Assembly (NCBI GenBank): GCA_021734905.1
Contig: JAIPIB010000002.1
Coordinates: forward strand, 38,167-102,166
DNA from: Minisyncoccota bacterium
GTDB taxonomy: Bacteria > Patescibacteriota > Minisyncoccia > Phycocordibacterales > UBA918
DNA: 64,000 bases
Direction: 5' to 3'
Under the pieces are notes generated by a model that searched no databases, had not been told where the DNA came from, and saw only the letters and a program-made list of their open reading frames with translations. Positions within the stretch are counted from its first letter, which is position 1. Each line of letters begins with the position of its first letter. The position numbers and the translations under genes are program-made. This document shows positions 9,239 through 37,104 of this stretch, piece after piece.

Positions 9239-9724
9239 GTGTACATGGATACAGCTGGAATTGTGACACTTCTCCAAGAGTCAATTTTTATGATTGTTGT
9301 CTTTTCAACTTTTCTTATATATGGCATGGCGAAGGGAAGATACGCACTCATCAATGTACTTTTTGCACTTTACCTCGCACTCCTCATATCAATCAAGTTT
9401 CCATACTATAATCAAATTGTGCAGGGGACAGGGGACAGTAGTGCCGTTGCAAAGATTCTTTTATTTATTAGTTTTTTCCTCGTAGGAATTATTCTATTTA
9501 GACGACACATACCTGGCGACGACTATGAAGCAGCCTTTCATAAAATCGGCAAGAAAGTTCTTCTTGCAGTAATGGCTACTGTGCTTGTTATGATTTTTAG
9601 TTTCCATGCTCTACCGGTAACAGAAATAATCACCCCCGGCACACCAATTCAGGCACTATTTGCCTCACAAGAAAACTTCTTCTGGTGGCTCATCCTCCCA
9701 CTTGCTGTTCTTTTCTTCGTGTAA
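9239..9724 (+). CDS. CvpA-like small integral membrane protein
   Basis: 161 aa with 4 predicted TM helices. Size and topology resemble the CvpA (colicin V production) family. Assignment by resemblance only. Confidence 0.4.
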   Translation: MYMDTAGIVTLLQESIFMIVVFSTFLIYGMAKGRYALINVLFALYLALLISIKFPYYNQIVQGTGDSSAVAKILLFISFFLVGIILFRRHIPGDDYEAAFHKIGKKVLLAVMATVLVMIFSFHALPVTEIITPGTPIQALFASQENFFWWLILPLAVLFFV

Positions 9725-9731
9725 AACCTAT

Positions 9732-10457
9732 ATGCAGATCAAGCCAATTAAAACATCAATTCACTGTATCAGTGATGATTTATTTTCCTTCATAGTTTCA
9801 CATGTTAAAAGACTTGATGATGGGGAAATACTCGTCGTAACATCAAAAATAGTAGCTCTCTCACAAGGAAATATTATTTCGCACGACATGTATACCGAAT
9901 ATCTTAAAAATGTTTCAATGCAGTCTATTCAAACTCCGTGGGCAACGTTCACTCACACAAATGAGGGTTGGTGCATCAATGCGGGCATTGATGAATCGAA
10001 TGCACAAGATAGCCTCATCACACTTCCAAAAAAACCATTTGAATGCGCGCATGCTCTCCTTAAAAAACTCAAGAGACATTATGGTCTAAAAAACCTTGGT
10101 CTTATTATTACAGACACACGAAGTGTACCACTTCGTGTTGGTACTATTGGACGAACCATTGGCTGTGCAGGATTTCATCCCTTCAAAAGTTATATTGGCA
10201 AGAAAGACCTTTTCGGAAGAAAAAGCCGAGTAACGATAAGTAATGTTGCTGATGCCCTTGCGGCAGGTGCCGTTCTTGTCATGGGCGAAGGTAATGAACA
10301 AACACCTCTCGCTGTCATACAAAATGCTCCAATAACCTTCACTCAATCAAAATTAAAAAATGAGGAAACACGTCTTTTCCTTCTCCCCAAAGATGACATC
10401 TTTACATATCTATACAAAAACGCTTCGGTAGAGCCTCACAAACATCCCAAGAAGTAA
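9732..10457 (+). CDS. CofE-like protein (F420-0:gamma-glutamyl ligase family, pfam01996-like)
   Basis: The ATG at 9732 is in frame with track ORF 9660. Motifs ILVVTSKIVALSQGN, GWCINAGIDESN and LIITDTRSVPLRVGTIGRTIGCAG match the CofE/FbiB N-domain signatures (ilvVtSKivSkaeGr, GfvcANAGvDeSN, viisDtfGRpwR.GqvdvAIG). Confidence 0.72.
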   Translation: MQIKPIKTSIHCISDDLFSFIVSHVKRLDDGEILVVTSKIVALSQGNIISHDMYTEYLKNVSMQSIQTPWATFTHTNEGWCINAGIDESNAQDSLITLPKKPFECAHALLKKLKRHYGLKNLGLIITDTRSVPLRVGTIGRTIGCAGFHPFKSYIGKKDLFGRKSRVTISNVADALAAGAVLVMGEGNEQTPLAVIQNAPITFTQSKLKNEETRLFLLPKDDIFTYLYKNASVEPHKHPKK

Positions 10458-10863
10458 GTTTGGGTTTGTAGATGAAGATATAATCAACTTGCTCATCCCA
10501 AGGCTGTCTTTTAAGCACTTCACCAGATTTAAATGACATTGGTGTAGCAACACCAATGCGAAGCCAACCCTTTGGTATACGAGAAAGGAATCTGTCATAC
10601 CACCCACCACCACGCCCATGTCGCGTGCCTGATGAATCAAATGCAGTACCGGGCACAAGCACACACATTCGTCTTCCTTTGGCAAATTTTATACAGGTAT
10701 CCGCCCACTCAATTGGATCAATATGAGAATCGTTGGGTGTAACAATACTGTCCTCACTACGGTATAGCATAGAAAGAGGCAATAAATCTGGCTCATTGAA
10801 AAACGGCACATAGAGTACTACACCGTGACAAAGGGAAATCTCTGGTATTGATTCAAGTATCAT
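10402..10863 (-). CDS. 5-formyltetrahydrofolate cyclo-ligase (MTHFS) family
   Basis: VLYVPFFNEPDLLPL and VPGTAFDSSGTRHGRGGGWYDRFL match the MTHFS signature (G.G.GYYDR). The start is set at ATG 10863 because a minus-strand terminator (10878-10906) lies inside the longer TTG-initiated track ORF. The N-terminus is shorter than in typical MTHFS. Confidence 0.65.
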   Translation of the reverse strand: MILESIPEISLCHGVVLYVPFFNEPDLLPLSMLYRSEDSIVTPNDSHIDPIEWADTCIKFAKGRRMCVLVPGTAFDSSGTRHGRGGGWYDRFLSRIPKGWLRIGVATPMSFKSGEVLKRQPWDEQVDYIFIYKPKLTSWDVCEALPKRFCIDM

Positions 10864-10877
10864 ATTAATAACTATAT

Positions 10878-10906
10878 AAAAAAATGCCGAGGTTGAGAAC
10901 CTCGGC
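10878..10906 (-). terminator. rho-independent terminator after the ATP-grasp gene
   Basis: On the minus strand: gccgaggttctcaacctcggc followed by ttttttt. Confidence 0.6.
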
Positions 10907-10925
10907 AAACTCAAACACTGACTCC

Positions 10926-11936
10926 TTAGACGTCGAGACTCTTAAGTACTTTCGAGTAAAGCTGTTCGACTATCTTCTGCTGGTCAATTCCATTGCGTGA
11001 GTAGTGGTCGAGTCCTGGTGCGGCGTTTATTTCGAGTACCCAATACTGCTTTGACTCTTCAGTGATATCACCACAGATCATGAGGTCAACTCCACAAAGA
11101 CGGAGGCCCATGTCCCGAGTCAGTGACACCGCGAGTGCTCGATACGTAGGATGCACGACACTTGTGACATCGACAGCCTCACCACCGGAAGAGAGATTTG
11201 CATTGTCGAGGAGGAACACCTTCCTGCCCTTCGCGACAACACTCTCGAACGTACAACCATCTCGCGCGAGCTTTTCCTTAATGCGTGGATCATCGAGCAC
11301 AATTTGCGTATCACGCCCCATTCGCGAAAATGAACGTTGCTTCCTGAGGAGAAGCTCGCGTACAGTCCTCTTTCCATCACCTACAACAGAAAGCGGGATA
11401 CGCTCGTACGCTGAAATGACGTCTCCGTCGAGCACCACGATGCGGTAGTCTTTGCCAAAGACAGGGTTCTGCACAAGCACGATGCGATCGTTCTTGAAGA
11501 CTGCGCGTACCGCACGGTAAAACGCACGTTTTGTGTGCACGAGTGCCACATCAGTCCCTTGGCTTCCACTGTTTGGCTTCACAATGACCGGAAGACCAAG
11601 CTTCTGGGCATGAGCATACGCCTCATCAATGCCACGCCGCCTCGCATGAATTGCCTTACACCAGTCATCACGGAAGAACGTCTTGCTTCCCGGAACAACT
11701 GGATAGCCCAGTTTGACCATAAAAAAGTTCGCATAATCCTTGTCTTTCGCAACATCCGATGCGCCTACTGGATTGAGGTCAAGCGTGTTGTACCTGAAAT
11801 ACGTCCGCCTTCCACTCTTAAAGGTGATCTGCCCTACGATACGCCACTCTGGTTCGAGGAGTACCTTCGCCCCAATCTTTGGGGCAATTTTTTGGAGCAT
11901 TTCCCCAAGTACAAGTGATTCGCTTTTCTTTTTCAT
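10926..11936 (-). CDS. stand-alone ATP-grasp ligase homologous to the cyanophycin-synthetase (CphA) ATP-grasp domain / RimK-like
   Basis: LGLPVIVKPNSGSQGTDVALV, YRIVVLDGDVISAYERIPLSVVGDGKRTVRELL, DNANLSSGGEAVDVTSVVHP and VLEINAAPGL align block-for-block with the CphA G-domain (PVVIKPLDGNHGRGITINV, HRVLVVNGKLVAVAERIPAHVTGDG, ATANLSTGGIAIDRTDDIHP, IVEVNAAPG). No Mur-ligase M-domain is present. Confidence 0.75.
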   Translation of the reverse strand: MKKKSESLVLGEMLQKIAPKIGAKVLLEPEWRIVGQITFKSGRRTYFRYNTLDLNPVGASDVAKDKDYANFFMVKLGYPVVPGSKTFFRDDWCKAIHARRRGIDEAYAHAQKLGLPVIVKPNSGSQGTDVALVHTKRAFYRAVRAVFKNDRIVLVQNPVFGKDYRIVVLDGDVISAYERIPLSVVGDGKRTVRELLLRKQRSFSRMGRDTQIVLDDPRIKEKLARDGCTFESVVAKGRKVFLLDNANLSSGGEAVDVTSVVHPTYRALAVSLTRDMGLRLCGVDLMICGDITEESKQYWVLEINAAPGLDHYSRNGIDQQKIVEQLYSKVLKSLDV

Positions 11937-12082: not shown

Positions 12083-12801
12083 ATGGCAAAAAACAACTTC
12101 AAAAGACTTAGTTATCTACCAGACAAAATCTGGTGCTCTTGAACTGCGTGGGGATTTTGAGAAGGAAACAATTTGGGCCAGCCTCGATCAAATCGCAGGA
12201 GTTTTTGGTCGGAATAAGTCAGTAATTTCAAGACACCTTAAAAACATTTTTTTGGAGGGCAAATTAGATCGCAACTCAGTTGTTGCAAAAAATGCAACAA
12301 CTGCCAGTGATGGGAAAACTTATCAAGGAGTTTGCTTCAACGTGGGTTTCCCTTGATGTATATGATAAGGAAGAGTTTGAACTGAAAGGAATCACAAAGA
12401 AGAAAGTATCACTCGTAAGCAGTGACCTTTTGTCTGCAATCGGTGATTTGAGAAAGGAATTAGTGAAGAAGAAGGAAGCAACTGAGATGTTTGCATCTGA
12501 ACGTAGGGAAGGGAATATTGAAGGTATTGTCGGAAATGTCATGCAGTCATTCGGAGGTAAGGCAATGTATCCCACAGTTGAAGAGAAGGCCGCTCACCTG
12601 CTCTACTTCATGGTAAAGAACCACCCATTCACCGATGGCAACAAGCGTTCAGGAGCATTTGCATTCATCTGGTTTCTCAGGAAGACCGGTGCGAAGTGAA
12701 GTAGACAAATCAATCCTCCTGCTCTCACACTCCTCATTGCAGAAAGCGACCCATCAAAGAAAGATCAAATGGTCGCCCTCGTAACCCAAATGCTACGGTA
12801 G
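12083..12801 (+). pseudogene. RhuM-family (Fic/Doc-like) gene, disrupted by two frameshifts and an in-frame TGA
   Basis: The C-terminal frame (ASERREGNIEGIVGNVMQSFGGKAMYPTVEEKAAHLLYFMVKNHPFTDGNKRSGAFAFIWFL) matches the RhuM/Doc motif HPFxDGNKR. The N-terminal RhuM block (LVIYQTKSGALELRGDFEKETIWASLDQIAGVFGRNKSVISRHLKNIF) is in another frame. The ATG at 12083 is out of frame across an A6 run (12088-12093). TGA at 12697-12699 interrupts the frame, and homology continues (ALTLLIAESDPSKKDQMVALVTQMLR) to a stop at 12801. Confidence 0.6.
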
Positions 12802-12865: not shown

Positions 12866-13483
12866 ATGAAAACTGAATTTAATAAGAAAATACTACTTAA
12901 GTACGTTCCCATATACGATGCAAATTTGTCTCTTGCATCAGGTGTCACGCTATCAGACGCTGAAATTTCTGAAGGATATGAATACTGCACACTCTTTGAA
13001 AAAGAGTGGAATTCTGTTGCTCAAGTTCTTGAATATTACACCTCATTAGGATTCAATCTCCCTAATCAGACTCCTGCGTATCTAACTCATCCGAGGGGAA
13101 CCTTTACTCCATTTTCTGACCCCCTTACTCTTCATATAAAGGAGGACAAGGATGATGTTTTGGCGACACTGATTCATGAGTATTGCCATGTACTTTTTCT
13201 ATATCACAAGAACGATATTTTGTCAGACAAAATCTGGAACGCGGTACAAAAAGCATTCCCAACCGAAGATTTTGGTACTCAAGATCACATCACGATAAAC
13301 AAGCTCGCCGAAGGCGGTTTGTATTATTTATGGGGAAGGGAGAAGACAGATGCGATTCTCTCGAAGGAGAGAGCCATGCCTGGTCTCGAGCGAGCGTGGA
13401 AAATACTAGATTCAGCTGAATTAAGGAATACCAACCCTGTTGAAGCAATACTTGAGCTTTGCGCCCAACAGTCTGGAAAATAA
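12866..13483 (+). CDS. hypothetical HExxH-motif protein (putative SprT-like metallohydrolase)
   Basis: 205 aa, no TM. Single HEYCH motif (LIHEYCHVLF). Family not firmly recognised. Confidence 0.45.
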   Translation: MKTEFNKKILLKYVPIYDANLSLASGVTLSDAEISEGYEYCTLFEKEWNSVAQVLEYYTSLGFNLPNQTPAYLTHPRGTFTPFSDPLTLHIKEDKDDVLATLIHEYCHVLFLYHKNDILSDKIWNAVQKAFPTEDFGTQDHITINKLAEGGLYYLWGREKTDAILSKERAMPGLERAWKILDSAELRNTNPVEAILELCAQQSGK

Positions 13484-13503
13484 TTCAGCAACAATCTGAA
13501 TAC

Positions 13504-14079
13504 ATGAAAACTTTATACATTACATACACGCATGGTGATGAGCATCCACCATATGAGATACCAAACGCGCTTGTTGCAAATCCTTTAGCAAGGGAACGAA
13601 ATTTGCGATACATTGAAACTGACCTGAACAGAAGTTTTGGTGTAAAGACACCGGTCTCATATGAAGAAAAAAGAGCTGTTGAATTGGAGGAGATGCTCAA
13701 CGACTATGATCTTGTTGTCGATATTCACAGAACAACAGCACAAACAAAATTTTGTGGCATTGTCACAAAATCTGATGATGCAGTGTATGTACTACCATAT
13801 GGTGTAAGTGCTGTAGTTCTCGTTGAGAATATTCAAAATTCACTTATTTCAAGAGCAAAGCATGGTATAGCATTAGAGTACCCATATGCATATTCGTTGC
13901 ATACTGGTAGCGTTCCACTGTATCGAGTTAAAAAGTTTGTTACTGCAGAACCACACTGGATCGATTTTGAAGAAACCGAACAGGGAATACCATACTTAGT
14001 AAACGAAAAGGCATACCATGGAAAATGTTTTTTACTTGAAAAAATCCATCCAAACATCAACTCAAATTTAAGGGAATAA
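13504..14079 (+). CDS. AstE/AspA (succinylglutamate desuccinylase/aspartoacylase) family zinc hydrolase-like protein
   Basis: The in-frame ATG at 13504 (MKTLYITYTHGDEH) gives the N-terminal metal-binding HG(D/N)E motif. DLNRSFG matches the DLNR motif of the AstE/AspA-M14 fold. Confidence 0.5.
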   Translation: MKTLYITYTHGDEHPPYEIPNALVANPLARERNLRYIETDLNRSFGVKTPVSYEEKRAVELEEMLNDYDLVVDIHRTTAQTKFCGIVTKSDDAVYVLPYGVSAVVLVENIQNSLISRAKHGIALEYPYAYSLHTGSVPLYRVKKFVTAEPHWIDFEETEQGIPYLVNEKAYHGKCFLLEKIHPNINSNLRE

Positions 14080-26929: not shown

Positions 26930-29900
26930 ATGTATCTACGGCGACAGCATTTTTTAGTATGTGCGCTTCTGAGTTGCATTCTTGTCTTTGCTCCGGTCTC
27001 TCACACACAGGCATTCTCACTCGATGACTCATCTCTCTGGAGAGGTACTGCGACACTCTTTGCCGGTGTGAGTTCTTTCACCTGTGGCAGTTTCTTCTCG
27101 TACATACTCAATCCACTTGGTCTCTGTGCAACGCCCAACTTTGACGGGGAACCACTCGCACAGAACGATACCCTCCATGACGCAATGGAGGGAATTGTCC
27201 CCGATGAAACACCAACGACCATACCCATTGCACCAACGTACATCACCAATACATACAACACCAATCCAACCACTATCGTACGAGACACAGTGAGAGAGGT
27301 GGTCTACCATACCGAGAGTAATACACCACCTGATCTCTCTCAGTTTGTGACCCGTGACTTCGTGAATAAACAGTCCAATAGAATTTATGATGTTCAGGGA
27401 GATGCACAGAGTACCAATGCTGCATCATTCACCACCAATCTCCTCACGGTATCAGGGGACAGCACCGTATCAGGACTCCTTACTGTTGACGGTGCACTCT
27501 CATCACTCGCATACACCTCTGCACCATACCTCACTGCCACAGATGCTGCTGCCACCTCTACCTTTGCGGGTAGTGTGACGGTTGATGGGCGTGTGGGGAT
27601 TGGGACGACGAGTCCAAAACAAAAATTACATATTGTTGGTAACGCATATACAGAAACACTCATTGAATCTTTGACAGCTGATTCTGCACTGGCACTAAAA
27701 TATGCATCTGGAAACACTGGTGGCATGTTCTTTTACTCAGGTGCCACTGCTGCTGGGTCACTATATGGAGGCAATGATAACAGTCTCAACTTACAAACAT
27801 ACACAGCAAGCCCATTAAAGTTTCTTACAAGCGGAACTGAACGCATGCGTATTTCTGATACTGGAAATGTTGGGATAGGGATAGCTTCACCAAATACTAG
27901 ATTCCAAATTGTAAATGGGTCAGTTTCCGGAAATGACGCTTTTGCCCAGTTCGGAAGTACAGTTGGAGGAACAGGTGAACTAGGCTTGCAGTTTGGACGA
28001 AGTGGAGCTACGTCTGGTTCATTAATAATTCAAGGAGTAAAAGAAGGTACTGGAGCAAATAATTTGTCCCTTCAACCAAGTGGAGGAAACATCGGTATCG
28101 GCACCACCTCTCCAACCTCTAAACTTACCGTCAATGGTGACATACGCATAGAGACAGGCTCAGGAGGACAACTCATCTTTGCAGACGGAAGCACTATGTC
28201 CTCAGCAGCACTTGGTTCAGCAGCAGCACTCTCAAACATCACAGACGCCATCATCACCGGAGACTCAGACACCAACAGTTCAGGTAATATACTATTCAAA
28301 ACCGGCTCCAATGACCGTATGACCATACTAAACAATGGAAATGTGGGAATTGGGACAGTGGGTCCGGGAACACCTCTCCAAGTAAATCACGGAGGAGGAG
28401 CTGATGGTACGAGGCAAAATGTCCTGACAGTTTCTACTGCCGGTTCTGTTACCTATGGTGGGTATATCGGCAATCGTGCTGTATCTGCAAATACGCATCA
28501 AGGCATGTTTATTGAGGGAGGGGGATCTTTAACCCTTGGAGCAAAGAGCTATAACATTGATTTTATAACGGGTGCAGGCATTACTGCTAGTGGCGATACA
28601 AATTTGAGAATGCGAATAGATTCTTCAGGCAACGTCGGCATCGGCACGACAGAGCCGGGCCTGCGTCTGGAAACAAAAGCTGCGGCCGCTGGACTACCAG
28701 CCACTTCTGGCACATCGCAAACTGGAATTATGCGCTTGAGTCAGGGGATTGGCACTGGTGTGGTTGATTTTGGTTTTGGCGGAACGGCTGGATATGGTTG
28801 GATACAGGCTGTTGATAGTGGTAATTTAGCAACCAACTATGGATTATTGTTGAATCCAAACGGCGGCAACGTCGGTATCGGGACGACGAATCCAACACAG
28901 GAACTGACAGTATATGGTGCAGGAAACAATTCTACTGAAATTAATATAATAGAGCCGGATGCAGTCTCCGAATCAATAATTAATTTTGGCGATTCCATGT
29001 CAGGGACGGCACGATATGAAGGTAGAATCTCTTATAACCATACGACTAATGCTTTAAATCTCAGCACAAATCATTTGGTCAGCACGCCCGAACTGACATT
29101 AAAGAATGGAAACGTCGGTATTGGCGTCGCGTCACCGCAGGCAATGCTTGATATTGTTGGTAACGATACCATTCTTAAAGTACGCGACACAAGAACAACA
29201 GGAGGTAACGCGACTTTACAGCTACAGGCAGAAGGTCAGCTTGCCCAGCTTAAATTCTATTACGGAGACAGATTCGCTATCGATAATGGTGGAGGAACGG
29301 AATGGCTTACAATAAAGCAGAACGGAAACATTGGCATCGGCACCACTTCACCACAGGCAAAACTAAGCGTAAAGGGAAGTGGCACCGGTTCAGGCTTCCT
29401 CGCACAGTTCACCGACAGCGCAGATAGTCCCAAGTTCACGATTTTGGATAATGGAAATGTTGGGATTGGTACGGCGATCCCAGGGTCAAAATTAACTGTG
29501 CAAGGAGGAAGTTCGGGAGCTGTTGATTTTGCTGTTATGCATTCTACTGGGAATGCGGGATTGTATTTCTCAACTCTTGCAAGCGGTTCTGGTAGATTAG
29601 TTTTTGCTAATTCCGCAAGTACAATAGTTAACCAAATCGGTATTTCAGATAATGAATACACATACTTCAATAATGGTAACGTAGGTATAGGAACATCGAC
29701 GCCAAGCGCAAAGTTGGATGTGGTCGAAGGAATTATTAGAATTTCGGGCACAAGTGATGCATTCGACCAAACTTTATCTATTCAGAATAATGTGAACAAG
29801 GTTCTTAAGCTTACTGTGGGTTCTAACGGTGGAGGGACGGCATGGTACACACAGCCAAACACAGGAACTCTCGGCGTGGATACTGGGATGGATTTACGTT

Positions 29901-32389
29901 TCTCGGCTGGCGCAGCGGAACGAATGAGAGTTACAAGCGCTGGCAACGTCGGCATCAGCACCACCTCGCCATCAGCAAAACTCGACGTCTGGGGTAATTT
30001 GAAAGTAGGCACCAGTTCAACCCCTACGTTGTTTGTTGATGCCGCGAGCGGAAACGTCGGTATTGGTACAAATAATCCTACTGGTAAGATTCAAATCTAC
30101 GACAATACTGATGCCCTAATACAAAGCACGATAGTAAACGATAGCGCAGGTACTTCGGCATGGTCGAGAGTGGGGGCCGGTGCTAGTTTCTCATCCACAT
30201 TCGTAGAACATTTCAGTAATAGTTATTCAGGTACTGGAGCAAGGCAAACGGGATCAGGAAATCTAACGACAAGTGGTTCTGGGGGATTGAGTATTTCTAC
30301 AGAAACCGCATCAACACCAATTCGCTTTTATACAAGTGGACTCGCCGCATCGAATGAGCGTATGCGTATCGATTCAGCTGGCAACGTCGGTATCGGGACG
30401 ACGAGTCCACAAGGTTCTCTCACTATCAACAGTGGTCAATTTACTGTCCCTGTTGGATCTGCTGGAGCGCCATCAATTACATTTAATGACGATTTGAATA
30501 CTGGTATATATCATAATGCGGCAGATATCATGTCATTCTCTGCTGGTGGAAACACTATTTTTGAATTCTTTAATGATACAAATGGGGCTATTTCTAGAGT
30601 CGGTCTTCAACTTAAAGGTGTTACAGCAACAGGCATACCGTCACTCTCTTTTGCTTCGGATGTCGATACTGGATTCAGTTCTCCTGGTGTTAATATCGTT
30701 AGTCTGATTACTGGAGGAAATGAAAGACTACGCATCGATTCAGCTGGCAACGTCGGGATTGGGACAACAAATCCGCAGCGTATTCTTGATTTATCAAATA
30801 CTAGCGGGGTATTTCTAAGAGGAGACCGAACAAGTGGTGCGGGCGATGCACTGACTATTGTAGGCACAGGACAAGCTGCGGTTGAGGGAGCTCGAATGGT
30901 CATTAATATGGAAAACACTACTGATGCGTCTTCTAATATACAGTTTTATACGCACAATGGAGCTGCACTAGGCGAGAGAATGAGGATAACACAAGCCGGA
31001 AACGTCGGGATTGGCACCACTTCACCATCAGGCTTACTTCATGTACAAAAAGATCAAAATAGCCCAACAAGAATTCAAATTACAAATGAAAACACTGGGG
31101 CAAGTTCCCAAACTGGACTTATGGTTACAAACTCTGCACTTCCAAATTATTATTATACCGCAGGTTTAATGGGGACAAATTTTTCAACAAACGGTTTATT
31201 TGAACCAAATAAAGGTGTAATTTCAGTTGGAGGTGAAATTGATGGGTTAAATATTTTCACACAAAAATCTACAGCTCCATTAATCTTTGGAACTAACGGT
31301 GCGGAGAAAATGCGCATCTCAAACACTGGCAACGTCGGGATTGGAACAACATCACCAACATCAAGGCTCGATATAAAACAATCTGTTGATGCTTTCGGAG
31401 GCGGTATAAGATTAAATCAAGTCGCTGACTCCGATTACGCAGAAATTGTTTCTGCGGGCGATAGGTTGGTATTTGGTTTGAATGGGTATGAAAGAATATC
31501 GATATTAGAGAATGGTAACGTCGGAATTGGAACAACATCACCAACATACAAGTTAGAGGTGGCTGGCACCATAGCTTCAGAATCAAGCGGTGCATACAAC
31601 CTAGGAGCAGCAGGAAGAGACTGGGGATGTCTCTATTACAACTCAGGCACTCTCGGTACCTGCGCATCCGACGAAAGGCTCAAAGAGAACATCAAAACAC
31701 TCACCTTTACAAATGGCACAAGTACTGCACTCAATAAAGTCGCAAACCTTGAACTCCACACCTTTAACTTCAAGAATGCTCCAGGAAGTACCTACAAGGG
31801 ACTTATTGCACAGGAAGCACTCACTGTCGCACCAGAACTTGTTGAACTCGGTAGTGACGGATACTACCGAGTGAAGTACGGTGACATTCAATGGCTCGTC
31901 CTTGAAGCACTGAAGGAACTGTATGGAAAAGTGCAGGCACTACAAGATAAGTTTGTTGATGGTGTGCTAACACTTACGAGTGCCAATGTTGATTATGTTC
32001 AATCACGTGAAATTTGCCTTAGCGACGACACGGGAACAAGTTGTATTGATCGACAGAAACTTCAAAGATTGTTAGAAGGGGATGATGCTTTAAACAATTC
32101 AGATCAAGACAATGTGTCTACATCACAAGATCCTGAACCGACAACTGACACTGTGGATGATGATACGACCAATACAGCCTCATCTAGCGCCCAAGCAAAC
32201 ACCACCACAGAAGTCACTACCCAAGATGATGAGAATTCTGACATTTCACAAGAACAAACACCTACTGAATCTGATGTTATAACTACTCCCACTGAAGAGG
32301 AGGTGCCTTTAAGTGAGTCGACGGTTGAAAATCCTACTACCACTGAACCTGAAGTGACAACTCCAACAGAGACATCTCCTACTCAGTAG
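26930..32389 (+). CDS. giant secreted repeat-rich fibre protein with C-terminal Peptidase-S74 intramolecular chaperone (autocleavage) domain and acidic T/P/E-rich tail
   Basis: 1819 aa. Signal peptide MYLRRQHFLVCALLSCILVFAPVSHTQA. About 20 tandem 45-55 aa repeats carrying [ER]MRI.S.GNVGIGTTSP..KL.V. C-terminal block GAAGRDWGCLYYNSGTLGTCASDERLKENI...YKGLIAQEALTVAPELVE...YRVKYGDIQWLVLEALKEL matches the endosialidase/tail-fibre chaperone domain (S74) with catalytic Ser at 31667-31669. Confidence 0.85.
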   Translation: MYLRRQHFLVCALLSCILVFAPVSHTQAFSLDDSSLWRGTATLFAGVSSFTCGSFFSYILNPLGLCATPNFDGEPLAQNDTLHDAMEGIVPDETPTTIPIAPTYITNTYNTNPTTIVRDTVREVVYHTESNTPPDLSQFVTRDFVNKQSNRIYDVQGDAQSTNAASFTTNLLTVSGDSTVSGLLTVDGALSSLAYTSAPYLTATDAAATSTFAGSVTVDGRVGIGTTSPKQKLHIVGNAYTETLIESLTADSALALKYASGNTGGMFFYSGATAAGSLYGGNDNSLNLQTYTASPLKFLTSGTERMRISDTGNVGIGIASPNTRFQIVNGSVSGNDAFAQFGSTVGGTGELGLQFGRSGATSGSLIIQGVKEGTGANNLSLQPSGGNIGIGTTSPTSKLTVNGDIRIETGSGGQLIFADGSTMSSAALGSAAALSNITDAIITGDSDTNSSGNILFKTGSNDRMTILNNGNVGIGTVGPGTPLQVNHGGGADGTRQNVLTVSTAGSVTYGGYIGNRAVSANTHQGMFIEGGGSLTLGAKSYNIDFITGAGITASGDTNLRMRIDSSGNVGIGTTEPGLRLETKAAAAGLPATSGTSQTGIMRLSQGIGTGVVDFGFGGTAGYGWIQAVDSGNLATNYGLLLNPNGGNVGIGTTNPTQELTVYGAGNNSTEINIIEPDAVSESIINFGDSMSGTARYEGRISYNHTTNALNLSTNHLVSTPELTLKNGNVGIGVASPQAMLDIVGNDTILKVRDTRTTGGNATLQLQAEGQLAQLKFYYGDRFAIDNGGGTEWLTIKQNGNIGIGTTSPQAKLSVKGSGTGSGFLAQFTDSADSPKFTILDNGNVGIGTAIPGSKLTVQGGSSGAVDFAVMHSTGNAGLYFSTLASGSGRLVFANSASTIVNQIGISDNEYTYFNNGNVGIGTSTPSAKLDVVEGIIRISGTSDAFDQTLSIQNNVNKVLKLTVGSNGGGTAWYTQPNTGTLGVDTGMDLRFSAGAAERMRVTSAGNVGISTTSPSAKLDVWGNLKVGTSSTPTLFVDAASGNVGIGTNNPTGKIQIYDNTDALIQSTIVNDSAGTSAWSRVGAGASFSSTFVEHFSNSYSGTGARQTGSGNLTTSGSGGLSISTETASTPIRFYTSGLAASNERMRIDSAGNVGIGTTSPQGSLTINSGQFTVPVGSAGAPSITFNDDLNTGIYHNAADIMSFSAGGNTIFEFFNDTNGAISRVGLQLKGVTATGIPSLSFASDVDTGFSSPGVNIVSLITGGNERLRIDSAGNVGIGTTNPQRILDLSNTSGVFLRGDRTSGAGDALTIVGTGQAAVEGARMVINMENTTDASSNIQFYTHNGAALGERMRITQAGNVGIGTTSPSGLLHVQKDQNSPTRIQITNENTGASSQTGLMVTNSALPNYYYTAGLMGTNFSTNGLFEPNKGVISVGGEIDGLNIFTQKSTAPLIFGTNGAEKMRISNTGNVGIGTTSPTSRLDIKQSVDAFGGGIRLNQVADSDYAEIVSAGDRLVFGLNGYERISILENGNVGIGTTSPTYKLEVAGTIASESSGAYNLGAAGRDWGCLYYNSGTLGTCASDERLKENIKTLTFTNGTSTALNKVANLELHTFNFKNAPGSTYKGLIAQEALTVAPELVELGSDGYYRVKYGDIQWLVLEALKELYGKVQALQDKFVDGVLTLTSANVDYVQSREICLSDDTGTSCIDRQKLQRLLEGDDALNNSDQDNVSTSQDPEPTTDTVDDDTTNTASSSAQANTTTEVTTQDDENSDISQEQTPTESDVITTPTEEEVPLSESTVENPTTTEPEVTTPTETSPTQ
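27590..31560 (+). repeat. in-frame coding tandem repeats (GNVGIGT units) inside the fibre gene
   Basis: Recurrent nucleotide units aacgtcgg(c/t)at(c/t)gg(c/g)ac(c/g)ac and peptide GNVGIGTTSP occur about 20 times. Confidence 0.7.
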
Positions 32390-34922: not shown

Positions 34923-36002
34923 ATGCCTATGGATGTAACAATCATAAAAGTACTTGCACCTACAGCAATTGCTTTTACTGTAGGTATCCTTATTACTCCA
35001 ATAATTTCACACCATCTCTACAAATTCGAGATGTGGAAAAAGAAATCTGGAAAAGGCATTGGTTATGGTGGAGGTGCGACTCCAATTTTTGACAGACTTC
35101 ACAAGAACCGTGACACAAATACCCCGAGAATGGGCGGAATTGTTATCTGGGCAAGCGTACTTATTACTGCCGTTCTTATATGGGCTCTTCAATTTCTATT
35201 TAATGACCATCCCGTAGGAACACTGAATTTCCTCAGTAGATCTCAAACATGGCTTCCTCTTTTCGCTCTCATAATTGGAGCAGGAGTTGGTTTTATTGAT
35301 GATTTTCTTGTTGTTCGAGGAACTGGCAAGCATTTTGCTGGAGGGCTACCACTACTGCAGCGGCTCCTTGTTGTAGGAATTACAGCAATCTTCAGCGCAT
35401 GGTGGTTTTATGAAAAACTTGATGTAAGTACCGTGACTTTGATAGGTTATGGGCAAATCAAGCTTGGTATATTTTTCATTCCTTTCTTTGTCATCATTGC
35501 GCTTGCTATTTATGCAAGCAGTGTCATCGATGGAATTGATGGTCTATCCGGAGGTACTTTTATGTTCATCTTTTCAGCATATGCTGGAATCGCTGTCTAT
35601 CAGAACCAGATTGATATCGCTGCATTTTGCGCAACAATCGTCGGAGGGATACTTGCATTTCTCTGGTTTAATGTTCCCCCGGCGAGATTTTACATGACAG
35701 AGACAGGAATTATGGCGCTCACAATGTCTCTTACAATCGTTGCTTTTATGACCGACTCGCTCGGTGGAGGTGAAGGTGTTTCCGTCCTTCCCATTATTGG
35801 TATTCTACTTGTTGTGACAGTACTTTCAGATATTTTGCAACTTATCTCAAAGAGAATACTTGGAAAAAAACTTTTCCTTATTGCTCCACTTCATCACCAC
35901 TTCGAAGCAATAGGCTGGCCTGCTGAAAAGGTGACTATGCGTTACTGGATTCTAGGTTTTGTCGCTGCCGTAATTGGAATCATACTGACAATAATGTTTT
36001 AG
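34923..36002 (+). CDS. mraY: phospho-N-acetylmuramoyl-pentapeptide transferase
   Basis: DDFLVV, VIDGIDGLSGG and APLHHHFE motifs. Multi-TM. Confidence 0.9.
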   Translation: MPMDVTIIKVLAPTAIAFTVGILITPIISHHLYKFEMWKKKSGKGIGYGGGATPIFDRLHKNRDTNTPRMGGIVIWASVLITAVLIWALQFLFNDHPVGTLNFLSRSQTWLPLFALIIGAGVGFIDDFLVVRGTGKHFAGGLPLLQRLLVVGITAIFSAWWFYEKLDVSTVTLIGYGQIKLGIFFIPFFVIIALAIYASSVIDGIDGLSGGTFMFIFSAYAGIAVYQNQIDIAAFCATIVGGILAFLWFNVPPARFYMTETGIMALTMSLTIVAFMTDSLGGGEGVSVLPIIGILLVVTVLSDILQLISKRILGKKLFLIAPLHHHFEAIGWPAEKVTMRYWILGFVAAVIGIILTIMF

Positions 36003-36003
36003 C

Positions 36004-37104
36004 ATGCAACATACCTTTGATCGAACACTTCTCATTTTTACTGTGACACTTGTTGTTATAGGCTTCTTAATATTTTCATCAGCGTCACTTGGTTTACTGG
36101 CGCGCGAAGGTGCTCGTTTTTCTTCAGTAGCACTCAATCAAATACTGTTTGGTATCGTTGGTGGGGGAGCAGCACTTTTCCTAATGAGCACAGTGCATTA
36201 TCGCTGGTGGCGGCAATACGCATTTTATATTTTTTTATTCAGCCTTATTCTCACACTGTGCGTTTTTGTACCAGGTATAGGATTTTCTCATGGCGGAGCA
36301 AAACGGTGGATTGCTATTGGTTCAATTTCTCTGCAACCTGCAGAGCTCCTTAAAATTTCTTTTACTATCTATATGGCAACATGGCTTTCCGGCATGAAAC
36401 ATCATATAGGATCATTTAAAAAGGGGACCTTACCATTTGCTCTTTTTGTTGGATTAGTTGGAATACCTTTCCTCTTACAACCAGATACTGATAGTTATTT
36501 AATTATGGCAACAGCCTCTGTTGCCATGTTTATTACGGCCGGAGGAAGGATTCGTGACGTGATCATTATGGGCTTCTCAGGGATACTTCTTCTCGCTGTA
36601 CTTGCTTTCTCTAGACCATACATTATGGAACGTTTACAGACTTTTATTAACCCGGCAAATGACCCACAGGGTTCCGGTTACCAAATCAAGCAATCCCTCA
36701 TCGCAGTTGGTTCAGGAGGTTTTATAGGTCGTGGATTTGGGCAAAGTATCCAAAAGTTTGAATACTTACCAGAGCCTATAGGTGACTCGATTTTTGCTGT
36801 TTATGCTGAAGAATTTGGATTCTTTGGTTCAGTTGCTCTCCTCCTTCTTTTTGCAGGATTTGCCCTGCGAGGATACAAAATTGCGACACGTGCACCAGAT
36901 CTTTTTGGAATGCTTCTTGTTGTTGGTATCGTTACAATCATTATTACTCAGACAATCTTAAATATTGCTGCAATGCTCGGAATTGCGCCACTTTCCGGAC
37001 TGCCCCTACCATTCATTAGCCACGGTGGAACAGCATTACTTATAACACTCGCTTCAGTAGGCATTATTCTCAACGTATCAAAGTATCAGAAAAATTTTTC
37101 CTGA
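36004..37104 (+). CDS. ftsW: SEDS peptidoglycan glycosyltransferase FtsW/RodA
   Basis: GAKRWI.IG.ISLQPAELLKI and SHGGTALL motifs. 10 TM. Confidence 0.85.
   Translation: MQHTFDRTLLIFTVTLVVIGFLIFSSASLGLLAREGARFSSVALNQILFGIVGGGAALFLMSTVHYRWWRQYAFYIFLFSLILTLCVFVPGIGFSHGGAKRWIAIGSISLQPAELLKISFTIYMATWLSGMKHHIGSFKKGTLPFALFVGLVGIPFLLQPDTDSYLIMATASVAMFITAGGRIRDVIIMGFSGILLLAVLAFSRPYIMERLQTFINPANDPQGSGYQIKQSLIAVGSGGFIGRGFGQSIQKFEYLPEPIGDSIFAVYAEEFGFFGSVALLLLFAGFALRGYKIATRAPDLFGMLLVVGIVTIIITQTILNIAAMLGIAPLSGLPLPFISHGGTALLITLASVGIILNVSKYQKNFS

Follow-up and report, generated by a model that had tools for sequence, protein, structure and literature searches.

The window analysed here comprises 64,000 nucleotides (nt) from a Minisyncoccota bacterium (GTDB lineage Patescibacteriota, Minisyncoccia, Phycocordibacterales, UBA918; assembly GCA_021734905.1, contig JAIPIB010000002.1, positions 38,167 to 102,166 of the forward strand). 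It includes three adjacent genes, which encode a CofE-like gamma-glutamyl ligase, a short protein of the 5-formyltetrahydrofolate cyclo-ligase family (MTHFS) and a stand-alone ATP-grasp carboxylate-amine ligase (Table 1). This trio is a widely conserved folate-handling module in Patescibacteria, and the ATP-grasp gene is its conserved anchor. An initial annotation of the locus had described three neighbouring, convergent genes and had named their families, and profile searches confirmed both the arrangement and the families (PF01996, PF01812 and an ATP-grasp protein of the type of the G domain of cyanophycin synthetase, CphA). All three open reading frames (ORFs), and that of a membrane protein upstream, are present in the window. 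Gene starts were refined with NCBI and Logan gene calls on the identical contig (public metagenome-assembled genome (MAG) GCA_021734385.1, 'Candidatus Pacebacteria bacterium', and Logan assemblies).

The CofE-like and MTHFS-like genes are convergent, with 56 nt (10402-10457) shared by their 3' ends, so that their transcripts would be mutually antisense in this interval. Relatives in which the two genes are arranged in this way (e.g., L003, L043, L052 and L108) have comparable 3' overlaps, also of tens of nt. Hidden Markov models (HMMs) built from relatives in the Candidate Phyla Radiation (CPR) detected no FolC, DHFR, ThyA, SHMT or FolD across the 64-kb window, in agreement with the initial annotation, which had placed FolC outside it. 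The remainder of the window encodes housekeeping and peptidoglycan functions typical of a reduced genome.

An intrinsic-terminator-like hairpin lies between the ATP-grasp and MTHFS-like genes, with a TATAGT box beyond it, a few nt short of the ATG of MTHFS. A TATA-like box past the hairpin and just upstream of the MTHFS start is general in loci where MTHFS follows ATP-grasp. Across distant Patescibacteria, most related loci have a stem of one sequence class (GCYSRRG-loop-CYYSRGC, with a T-run) after ATP-grasp, whichever gene comes next. The stem motif has 24 matches in the 1.31 Mb of DNA that was fetched, and 22 of these sit directly after an ATP-grasp gene. We identified no Rfam match for the hairpin and no tetrahydrofolate (THF) or ZTP riboswitch around the genes, the only matches being below threshold and on a dnaJ terminator. 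It is unusual for the stem of a terminator to be conserved in sequence, and the hairpin may represent a regulatory element.

Table 1. Features of the locus in the window and related features in other loci (numbers prefixed with L)
Feature	Position or loci	Strand	Basis or remark
Membrane protein, multi-pass, 159-161 aa, no known family	9245-9724	+	ORF and gene call
CofE-like gamma-glutamyl ligase, 241 aa	9732-10457	+	PF01996 E=2.4e-40
MTHFS-like protein (5-formyltetrahydrofolate cyclo-ligase family), 153 aa, N-terminally short	10402-10863	-	PF01812 E=6.8e-14
Intrinsic-terminator-like hairpin and T7 run	10885-10907	-	10 bp stem, 6 GC; directly after ATP-grasp stop
Stand-alone ATP-grasp carboxylate-amine ligase, 336 aa, CphA G-domain / GshF C-terminal type	10926-11936	-	Profile scores and structure
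Same hairpin in other loci	L003, L010, L016, L018, L026, L028, L030, L038, L040, L042, L045, L046, L058, L067, L106, L110, L116		
Operon of ATP-grasp, 242-aa membrane protein, RibD_C/DHFR-like reductase and CofE-like genes	L024, L040, L050, L061, L063, L067, L077		
Cell-wall ATP-grasp paralogue	L167 2693-3706; L168 175-1188		Compare window 34923-37104

Association of the ATP-grasp gene with folate genes

A search for relatives of the ATP-grasp protein gave several thousand database matches. The best 120 are all about 336 aa long and 64-100% identical, and carry the names of Pacebacteria, Kaiserbacteria, Doudnabacteria, Minisyncoccia and other Patescibacteria. Relatives are encoded in 478 stretches of genomes taken at one per GTDB species. 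For the best 80 of these 478 loci (60-93% identity), ORFs were called and clustered, HMMs were built, and cluster representatives were checked against Pfam and NCBIfam; ATP-grasp was called in 77. Within the same genomes the identity of the ATP-grasp protein is about 67%, against about 53% for DnaJ. Thus, it is under unusually strong constraint.

The ATP-grasp gene is associated with folate genes. One lies within 6 kb of it in 55 of the 77 loci, and is immediately adjacent in 39 (51%). Recurrent neighbours are CofE-like (26 loci), short MTHFS (21 loci, mostly directly downstream on the same strand), a RibD_C/DHFR-like reductase (14), ThyA, dCTP deaminase and DHFR (11 each) and SHMT (10). Canonical FolC, passing the TIGR01499 cutoff, is found near ATP-grasp in 10 loci, typically in divergent orientation. 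Also frequent are FolD, dCMP deaminase, Tmk and PurL/Q/M/E. CPR genomes are reported to commonly carry folA, glyA and folD (PMC11974145). CofE-like or FolC occurs in 35 of the 77 loci, and the two occur together in none (hypergeometric P=0.015).

The commonest adjacency is that of ATP-grasp followed by MTHFS on the same strand (19 immediate neighbours). Other same-strand arrangements are CofE-like with ATP-grasp, and ATP-grasp with a membrane protein, the RibD_C/DHFR-like reductase and CofE-like. A search of metagenome contigs that started from MTHFS yielded the trio once more, in five or more different gene orders and orientations, and this shuffling points to selection rather than inherited synteny. 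More divergent members of the ATP-grasp family keep similar company. One with 45% identity adjoins a 152-aa short MTHFS, one with 34% identity adjoins formate-THF ligase and formate dehydrogenase, and another is near DHFR-Dcd-ThyA-Tmk.

These neighbourhoods bear out a link of the cluster to folate, as the initial annotation had suspected, and none to F420. Other F420 genes (cofC, cofD, cofG, cofH and fbiC) were found neither in the 64-kb window nor among the recurrent neighbours of the 80 loci, and no ATP-grasp neighbourhood holds an F420 gene; folate genes dominate. Also lacking are mur genes among the recurrent neighbours of the ATP-grasp orthologous group, and folP and folK (for dihydropteroate production) among the ATP-grasp neighbours.

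In seven loci a multi-pass membrane protein of about 242 aa, with no Pfam or NCBIfam family, is encoded between ATP-grasp and the DHFR-like reductase (Table 1). It is a candidate transporter of folate or of a folate precursor.

Family placement of the three proteins

The CofE-like protein belongs to the PF01996 superfamily (138.8 bits, cutoff 25), and its assignment in the initial annotation therefore holds in an HMM search. Among NCBIfam models it scores highest with TIGR04132, 'putative folate metabolism gamma-glutamate ligase' (173 bits, cutoff 350; profile positions 1-234 of 241). Scores against the CofE equivalogs are 135.8 bits for TIGR01916 (cutoff 180.65) and 137.6 for NF009809 (cutoff 274). 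Solved CofE structures (PDB 2G9I, 2PHN, 7ULD) share the fold family and match at about 94 bits over residues 79-201. Unlike CofE, the protein scores under the equivalog cutoffs and has a context of folate, not F420: its gene adjoins those for MTHFS, the DHFR-like reductase and other folate enzymes, and alternates with FolC across the ATP-grasp loci.

A precedent exists in Chlamydia, where FolC2 (CT611, a CofE homologue of COG1478) was found in 2007 to complement an E. coli folC mutant (PMC1971073; restated in PMC4161248). The clustering of folC2 with the 5-formyl-THF cycloligase gene was already figured in that work (PMC1971073, Fig. 5A legend). Both FolC2 and the Patescibacteria protein are of the CofE family PF01996, come from bacteria without sign of F420, and are encoded in folate clusters that include 5-formyl-THF cycloligase. 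From the family placement, with TIGR04132 as the best-scoring curated model, from the FolC2 precedent and from the mutual exclusivity with FolC, the best interpretation of the CofE-like protein is that of a FolC2-type folyl(poly)glutamate synthase. Its 173 bits, against a cutoff of 350, set the Patescibacteria proteins apart as a separate clade. The two cases differ further in that Patescibacteria are free-living or episymbiotic, whereas Chlamydia is an intracellular pathogen; in that the Patescibacteria gene has an ATP-grasp companion, which the Chlamydia clusters lack; and in that complementation is known for CT611 only. The initial annotation had suggested an unconventional form of glutamylation. 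The alternation of CofE-like with FolC (26 versus 10 loci, none with both) speaks for this, but the novelty does not stand, as FolC2 has been known since 2007 (PMC1971073). On this reading, the CofE-like protein is a known solution in a new clade rather than a novel route.

The MTHFS-like protein matches PF01812 (52.6 bits, cutoff 27) over profile positions 86-183 of 186 only, and reaches 65.6 bits against the equivalog TIGR02727 (cutoff 84.9). The N-terminal truncation noticed in the initial annotation is real and family-wide. Homologues in Patescibacteria are 135-160 aa long, some 30-40 residues shorter at the N-terminus than MTHFS (YgfA; PDB 1SOU, 1WKC, 1SBQ, 2JCB, 3HY3), and alignment begins at about residue 33 of 1SOU, so that the first 30 or so residues of the canonical protein are missing. 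The short N-terminus holds no conserved Lys or Arg. In other respects the protein resembles MTHFS. The AlphaFold2 model (pLDDT 89.5) has MTHFS structures as its top Foldseek matches (TMq 0.52-0.62), and the short family invariantly keeps E24, PG.xFD, RxGRGxGWYD (the GRGGGWYD loop) and D123. Features conserved with MTHFS are the Glu that binds the pterin, the phosphate-binding loop G-x-G-x-G-(Y/W)-Y-D and an acidic motif at the C-terminus. E24 is the counterpart of E61 of human MTHFS, which contacts the pterin ring (PMC10545881).

The ATP-grasp protein is a member of the ATP-grasp superfamily (PF08443, PF07478). Its best NCBIfam match is cyanophycin synthetase (TIGR02068, 164 bits, cutoff 850) at profile positions 237-471 of 862, followed among curated models by the C-terminal glutathione-synthetase domain of GshAB and by N-acetylglutaminylglutamine synthetase (105 bits). 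The profile coverage corresponds to the G-domain part alone and the Mur-ligase half is absent, as the initial annotation had observed. K120, R279, D284, E302 and N304, which are the catalytic Lys, Arg and Asp and the E-x-N metal ligands, are invariant in the orthologues, and the N-terminal 60 or so residues are family-specific and highly conserved. In the AlphaFold2 model (pLDDT 80) the structural neighbours are ATP-grasp proteins. The nearest solved structures in Foldseek are GshF (3LN6) and the G domains of CphA1 and CphA2 (TMq 0.63-0.71), compared with about 0.45-0.48 for RimK and Ddl. A sequence search of the PDB agrees, with CphA and GshF as the closest relatives at 23-28% identity. Thus, profile scores and the predicted fold place this protein with the peptide ligases of the CphA-G/GshF type.

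Several other assignments were considered and rejected. A true cyanophycin synthetase has about 860-900 aa, with the CphA N and M domains that the 336-aa protein lacks. Membership in the RimK family is contradicted by the scores against TIGR00768 (55.6 bits, cutoff 143.4), RimK (34, cutoff 331), MptN (43.5, cutoff 350) and CofF (28.5, cutoff 300). The literal parallel to CofE with a RimK-type CofF or MptN, drawn in the initial annotation, therefore fails. Scores with D-Ala-D-Ala ligase models (20-44 bits) stay below the cutoffs (243 or more), and a canonical full-length Ddl occurs alongside ATP-grasp in L059, so that ATP-grasp is no replacement for Ddl there. Grouping with Ddl or RimK, which the initial annotation had named as evidence against its proposal, was not seen. 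An analogue of formate-THF ligase is unlikely, as the divergent member noted above adjoins the canonical enzyme.

Proposed roles and alternatives

We propose that the trio forms a Patescibacteria-wide module for folate salvage and retention, consisting of a FolC2-type ligase, recycling of 5-formyl-THF and an ATP-grasp tail ligase. From families, gene context and analogy to characterised enzymes, we put the probability of this reading at about 0.45. The FolC2-type ligase would add one or more gamma-linked glutamates to folate, and would take the place of canonical FolC in lineages with the CofE-like gene. The short MTHFS, with its conserved pterin-binding and phosphate-loop motifs, would convert 5-formyl-THF to 5,10-methenyl-THF. 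5-Formyl-THF is a stable salvaged form of the cofactor and is also a by-product of SHMT. The ATP-grasp protein may attach an amino acid, putatively Glu or Asp, to the (poly)glutamyl tail of folate, at an alpha-carboxylate, and would work alongside whichever gamma-ligase is present, FolC2 or FolC.

Ligation at the alpha-carboxylate is proposed because the CphA G domain and the glutathione-synthetase domain of GshF phosphorylate a C-terminal alpha-carboxylate, forming an acyl phosphate that is then attacked by the amine of an amino acid. Like these domains (PDB 7WAE, 7LG5, 8FXI, 3LN6), the ATP-grasp protein has an N(L/I)S-x-GG loop and shares their catalytic residues, and its position beside Mur-ligase-type FolC in 10 of the 80 loci echoes the pairing of G and M domains in CphA1. 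It differs from them in being a stand-alone protein of 336 aa without the CphA N and M domains or the GshA half, in having its own conserved N-terminus, and in its folate context. A functional analogy may be made to MptN, CofF and MyfB, the RimK-family alpha-L-glutamate ligases, in which an ATP-grasp enzyme extends a cofactor tail begun by another ligase (PMC8141765; PMC8498797). The protein described here is a putative ligase of a different ATP-grasp clade.

Addition of alpha-linked amino acids, as caps or branches on the folyl-gamma-glutamate tails made by FolC2 or FolC, would give a chemically distinct folate pool. We regard this specific step as tentative, and as rather doubtful at present. 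An activity of this kind was reportedly described biochemically in E. coli in the 1980s. If the step takes place, the ATP-grasp gene would be the first known for alpha-linked folate tailing.

Patescibacteria account for much of the diversity of bacteria. To our knowledge they cannot make folate, and most of them keep folate-dependent enzymes. The capture and retention of folate thus bears directly on their dependence on hosts. The ATP-grasp protein is among the most conserved proteins of these genomes and has no assigned function; a literature search returned no paper on a CPR ATP-grasp protein with a link to folate. It appears to be an undescribed, robustly folate-linked, highly conserved and misannotated putative enzyme, and the new element of the module. 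Modification of folate tails, if it occurs, would constitute a new step of folate metabolism and a new class of cofactor-tailing enzyme. If the substrate is not folate, the strong linkage still marks a function tied to one-carbon and thymidylate metabolism. The products of the trio are three small soluble proteins, and either outcome is open to test.

Several observations weigh against a folate module of this kind. Both the CofE-like and the MTHFS-like proteins score under the curated equivalog cutoffs. The segment that is missing from the short MTHFS supplies Lys and Arg contacts to ATP in the human and Mycoplasma structures. In 22 of the 77 loci there is no folate gene within 6 kb of ATP-grasp. 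No fusion of ATP-grasp to a folate enzyme was identified among the long relatives, which are tandem ATP-grasps or fusions with acylphosphatase, TPR or MmgE/PrpD. Finally, a full-length paralogue with 40% identity is encoded in another CPR genome between mraY and ftsW, in the slot usually occupied by murD (Table 1). The cell-wall cluster around it is otherwise syntenic with that at 33.8-41 kb of the window, where the paralogue gene is absent. The wider ATP-grasp family is thus not uniformly linked to folate, and this member of it may be a ligase for peptidoglycan peptides.

The paralogue and the loci without folate neighbours also favour the best of the alternatives, in which ATP-grasp is a peptide or amino-acid ligase for some other substrate (a cell-wall precursor, small thiol or osmolyte dipeptide, for example) and lies near folate genes as part of a housekeeping island for nucleotide and one-carbon metabolism. 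The nearest characterised relatives (GshF, CphA and N-acetylglutaminylglutamine synthetase) make peptides, and PurL/Q/M/E, Dcd and Tmk are frequent neighbours too. We consider this unlikely. A folate gene is immediately adjacent in half of the loci, in shuffled orders and orientations, and the same-strand arrangements with MTHFS, CofE-like and the DHFR-like reductase point to a direct linkage. Remote ATP-grasp members adjoin formate-THF ligase (Fhs) or MTHFS, whereas mur genes do not recur beside the orthologous group and canonical Ddl coexists with it in L059.

Two further roles are possible, and both are less favoured than the folate salvage and retention module. In the first, similar to that of dihydrofolate synthase, ATP-grasp would add the first glutamate, joining L-Glu to the para-aminobenzoate carboxylate of (dihydro)pteroate, and FolC or FolC2 would only extend the tail. 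Carboxylate-amine ligase chemistry suits an ATP-grasp enzyme, the pairing with FolC or CofE-like is constant, and a monofunctional FolC with folylpolyglutamate synthase activity only is known in folate salvagers (PMC13408713). Such a role is nevertheless improbable, given the lack of folP and folK among the neighbours, the published CPR surveys consulted, which report only genes for folate interconversion, and the finding that Chlamydia FolC2 alone complemented E. coli folC (PMC1971073).

In the second, to which we give an equally low probability, ATP-grasp and the truncated MTHFS would form a two-part enzyme, with ATP-grasp supplying ATP-dependent activation or handling the formyl or one-carbon unit on folate. 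Same-strand ATP-grasp and MTHFS form the commonest adjacency, and all CPR MTHFS proteins lack the canonical N-terminal 30 or so residues. Yet the genes are separated by a conserved terminator-like hairpin, the short MTHFS keeps its invariant GRGGGWYD phosphate loop and acidic residues, each of the two is often encoded without the other nearby, and ATP-grasp coexists with canonical formate-THF ligase.

An ordinary F420 tail pair (cofE with cofF) or a genuine cyanophycin synthetase, as the names given by the NCBI pipeline (PGAP) would have it, can be dismissed as very improbable on the CofE, CofF and TIGR02068 scores and the domain content given above, on the folate neighbourhoods free of F420 genes, and on the absence of Patescibacteria from the producers in an F420 review (PMC8498797). 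In Patescibacteria MAGs PGAP systematically labels the 336-aa protein 'cyanophycin synthetase' and the CofE-like protein 'coenzyme F420-0:L-glutamate ligase' (P0001, P0002, P0010, P0020, P0090, P0097, P0241, P0242 and others); some IMG annotations already give dihydrofolate synthase / folylpolyglutamate synthase (DHFS/FPGS) for the CPR proteins. Both PGAP labels are very probably wrong for these Patescibacteria proteins, and misleading for metabolic reconstruction. The first would wrongly imply synthesis of a nitrogen-storage polymer in hundreds of MAGs.

Neighbouring genes in the window

The gene for the membrane protein upstream ends 7 nt before that of the CofE-like protein, with which it is probably co-transcribed. 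The initial annotation took it to be CvpA-like, which the searches do not support: no match to CvpA/Colicin_V, or to any Pfam or NCBIfam family, was found even at E<=10. Homologues are present in three related loci only, in one of which (L021) the gene is beside dnaJ and not beside folate genes. The membrane protein is thus no conserved member of the module.

On the other side of the trio, near the ATP-grasp gene, we identified a 139-aa Fic/DOC ORF at 12280-12699 on the forward strand (PF02661, E=1e-12, with the death-on-curing toxin model just under its cutoff). The gene calls of the public contig do not include this ORF; in L003 it is 95% conserved. It is followed on the same strand (12866-14079) by genes for a 205-aa HExxH protein, with a weak SprT-like match (E=0.014), and for a short protein of the AstE/AspA family (191-206 aa). 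This family comprises the catalytic domain of aspartoacylase and succinylglutamate desuccinylase, so that hydrolases of N-acyl-Asp/Glu are encoded near a putative Glu/Asp ligase. The proximity of these two genes to ATP-grasp is not conserved in other loci.

In a housekeeping region of the window (26930-32389, forward strand) is a gene for an 1819-aa protein with a Peptidase_S74 domain, the intramolecular chaperone auto-processing domain of the tail-fibre/endosialidase type. The domain marks it as a predicted large surface or phage-derived protein.

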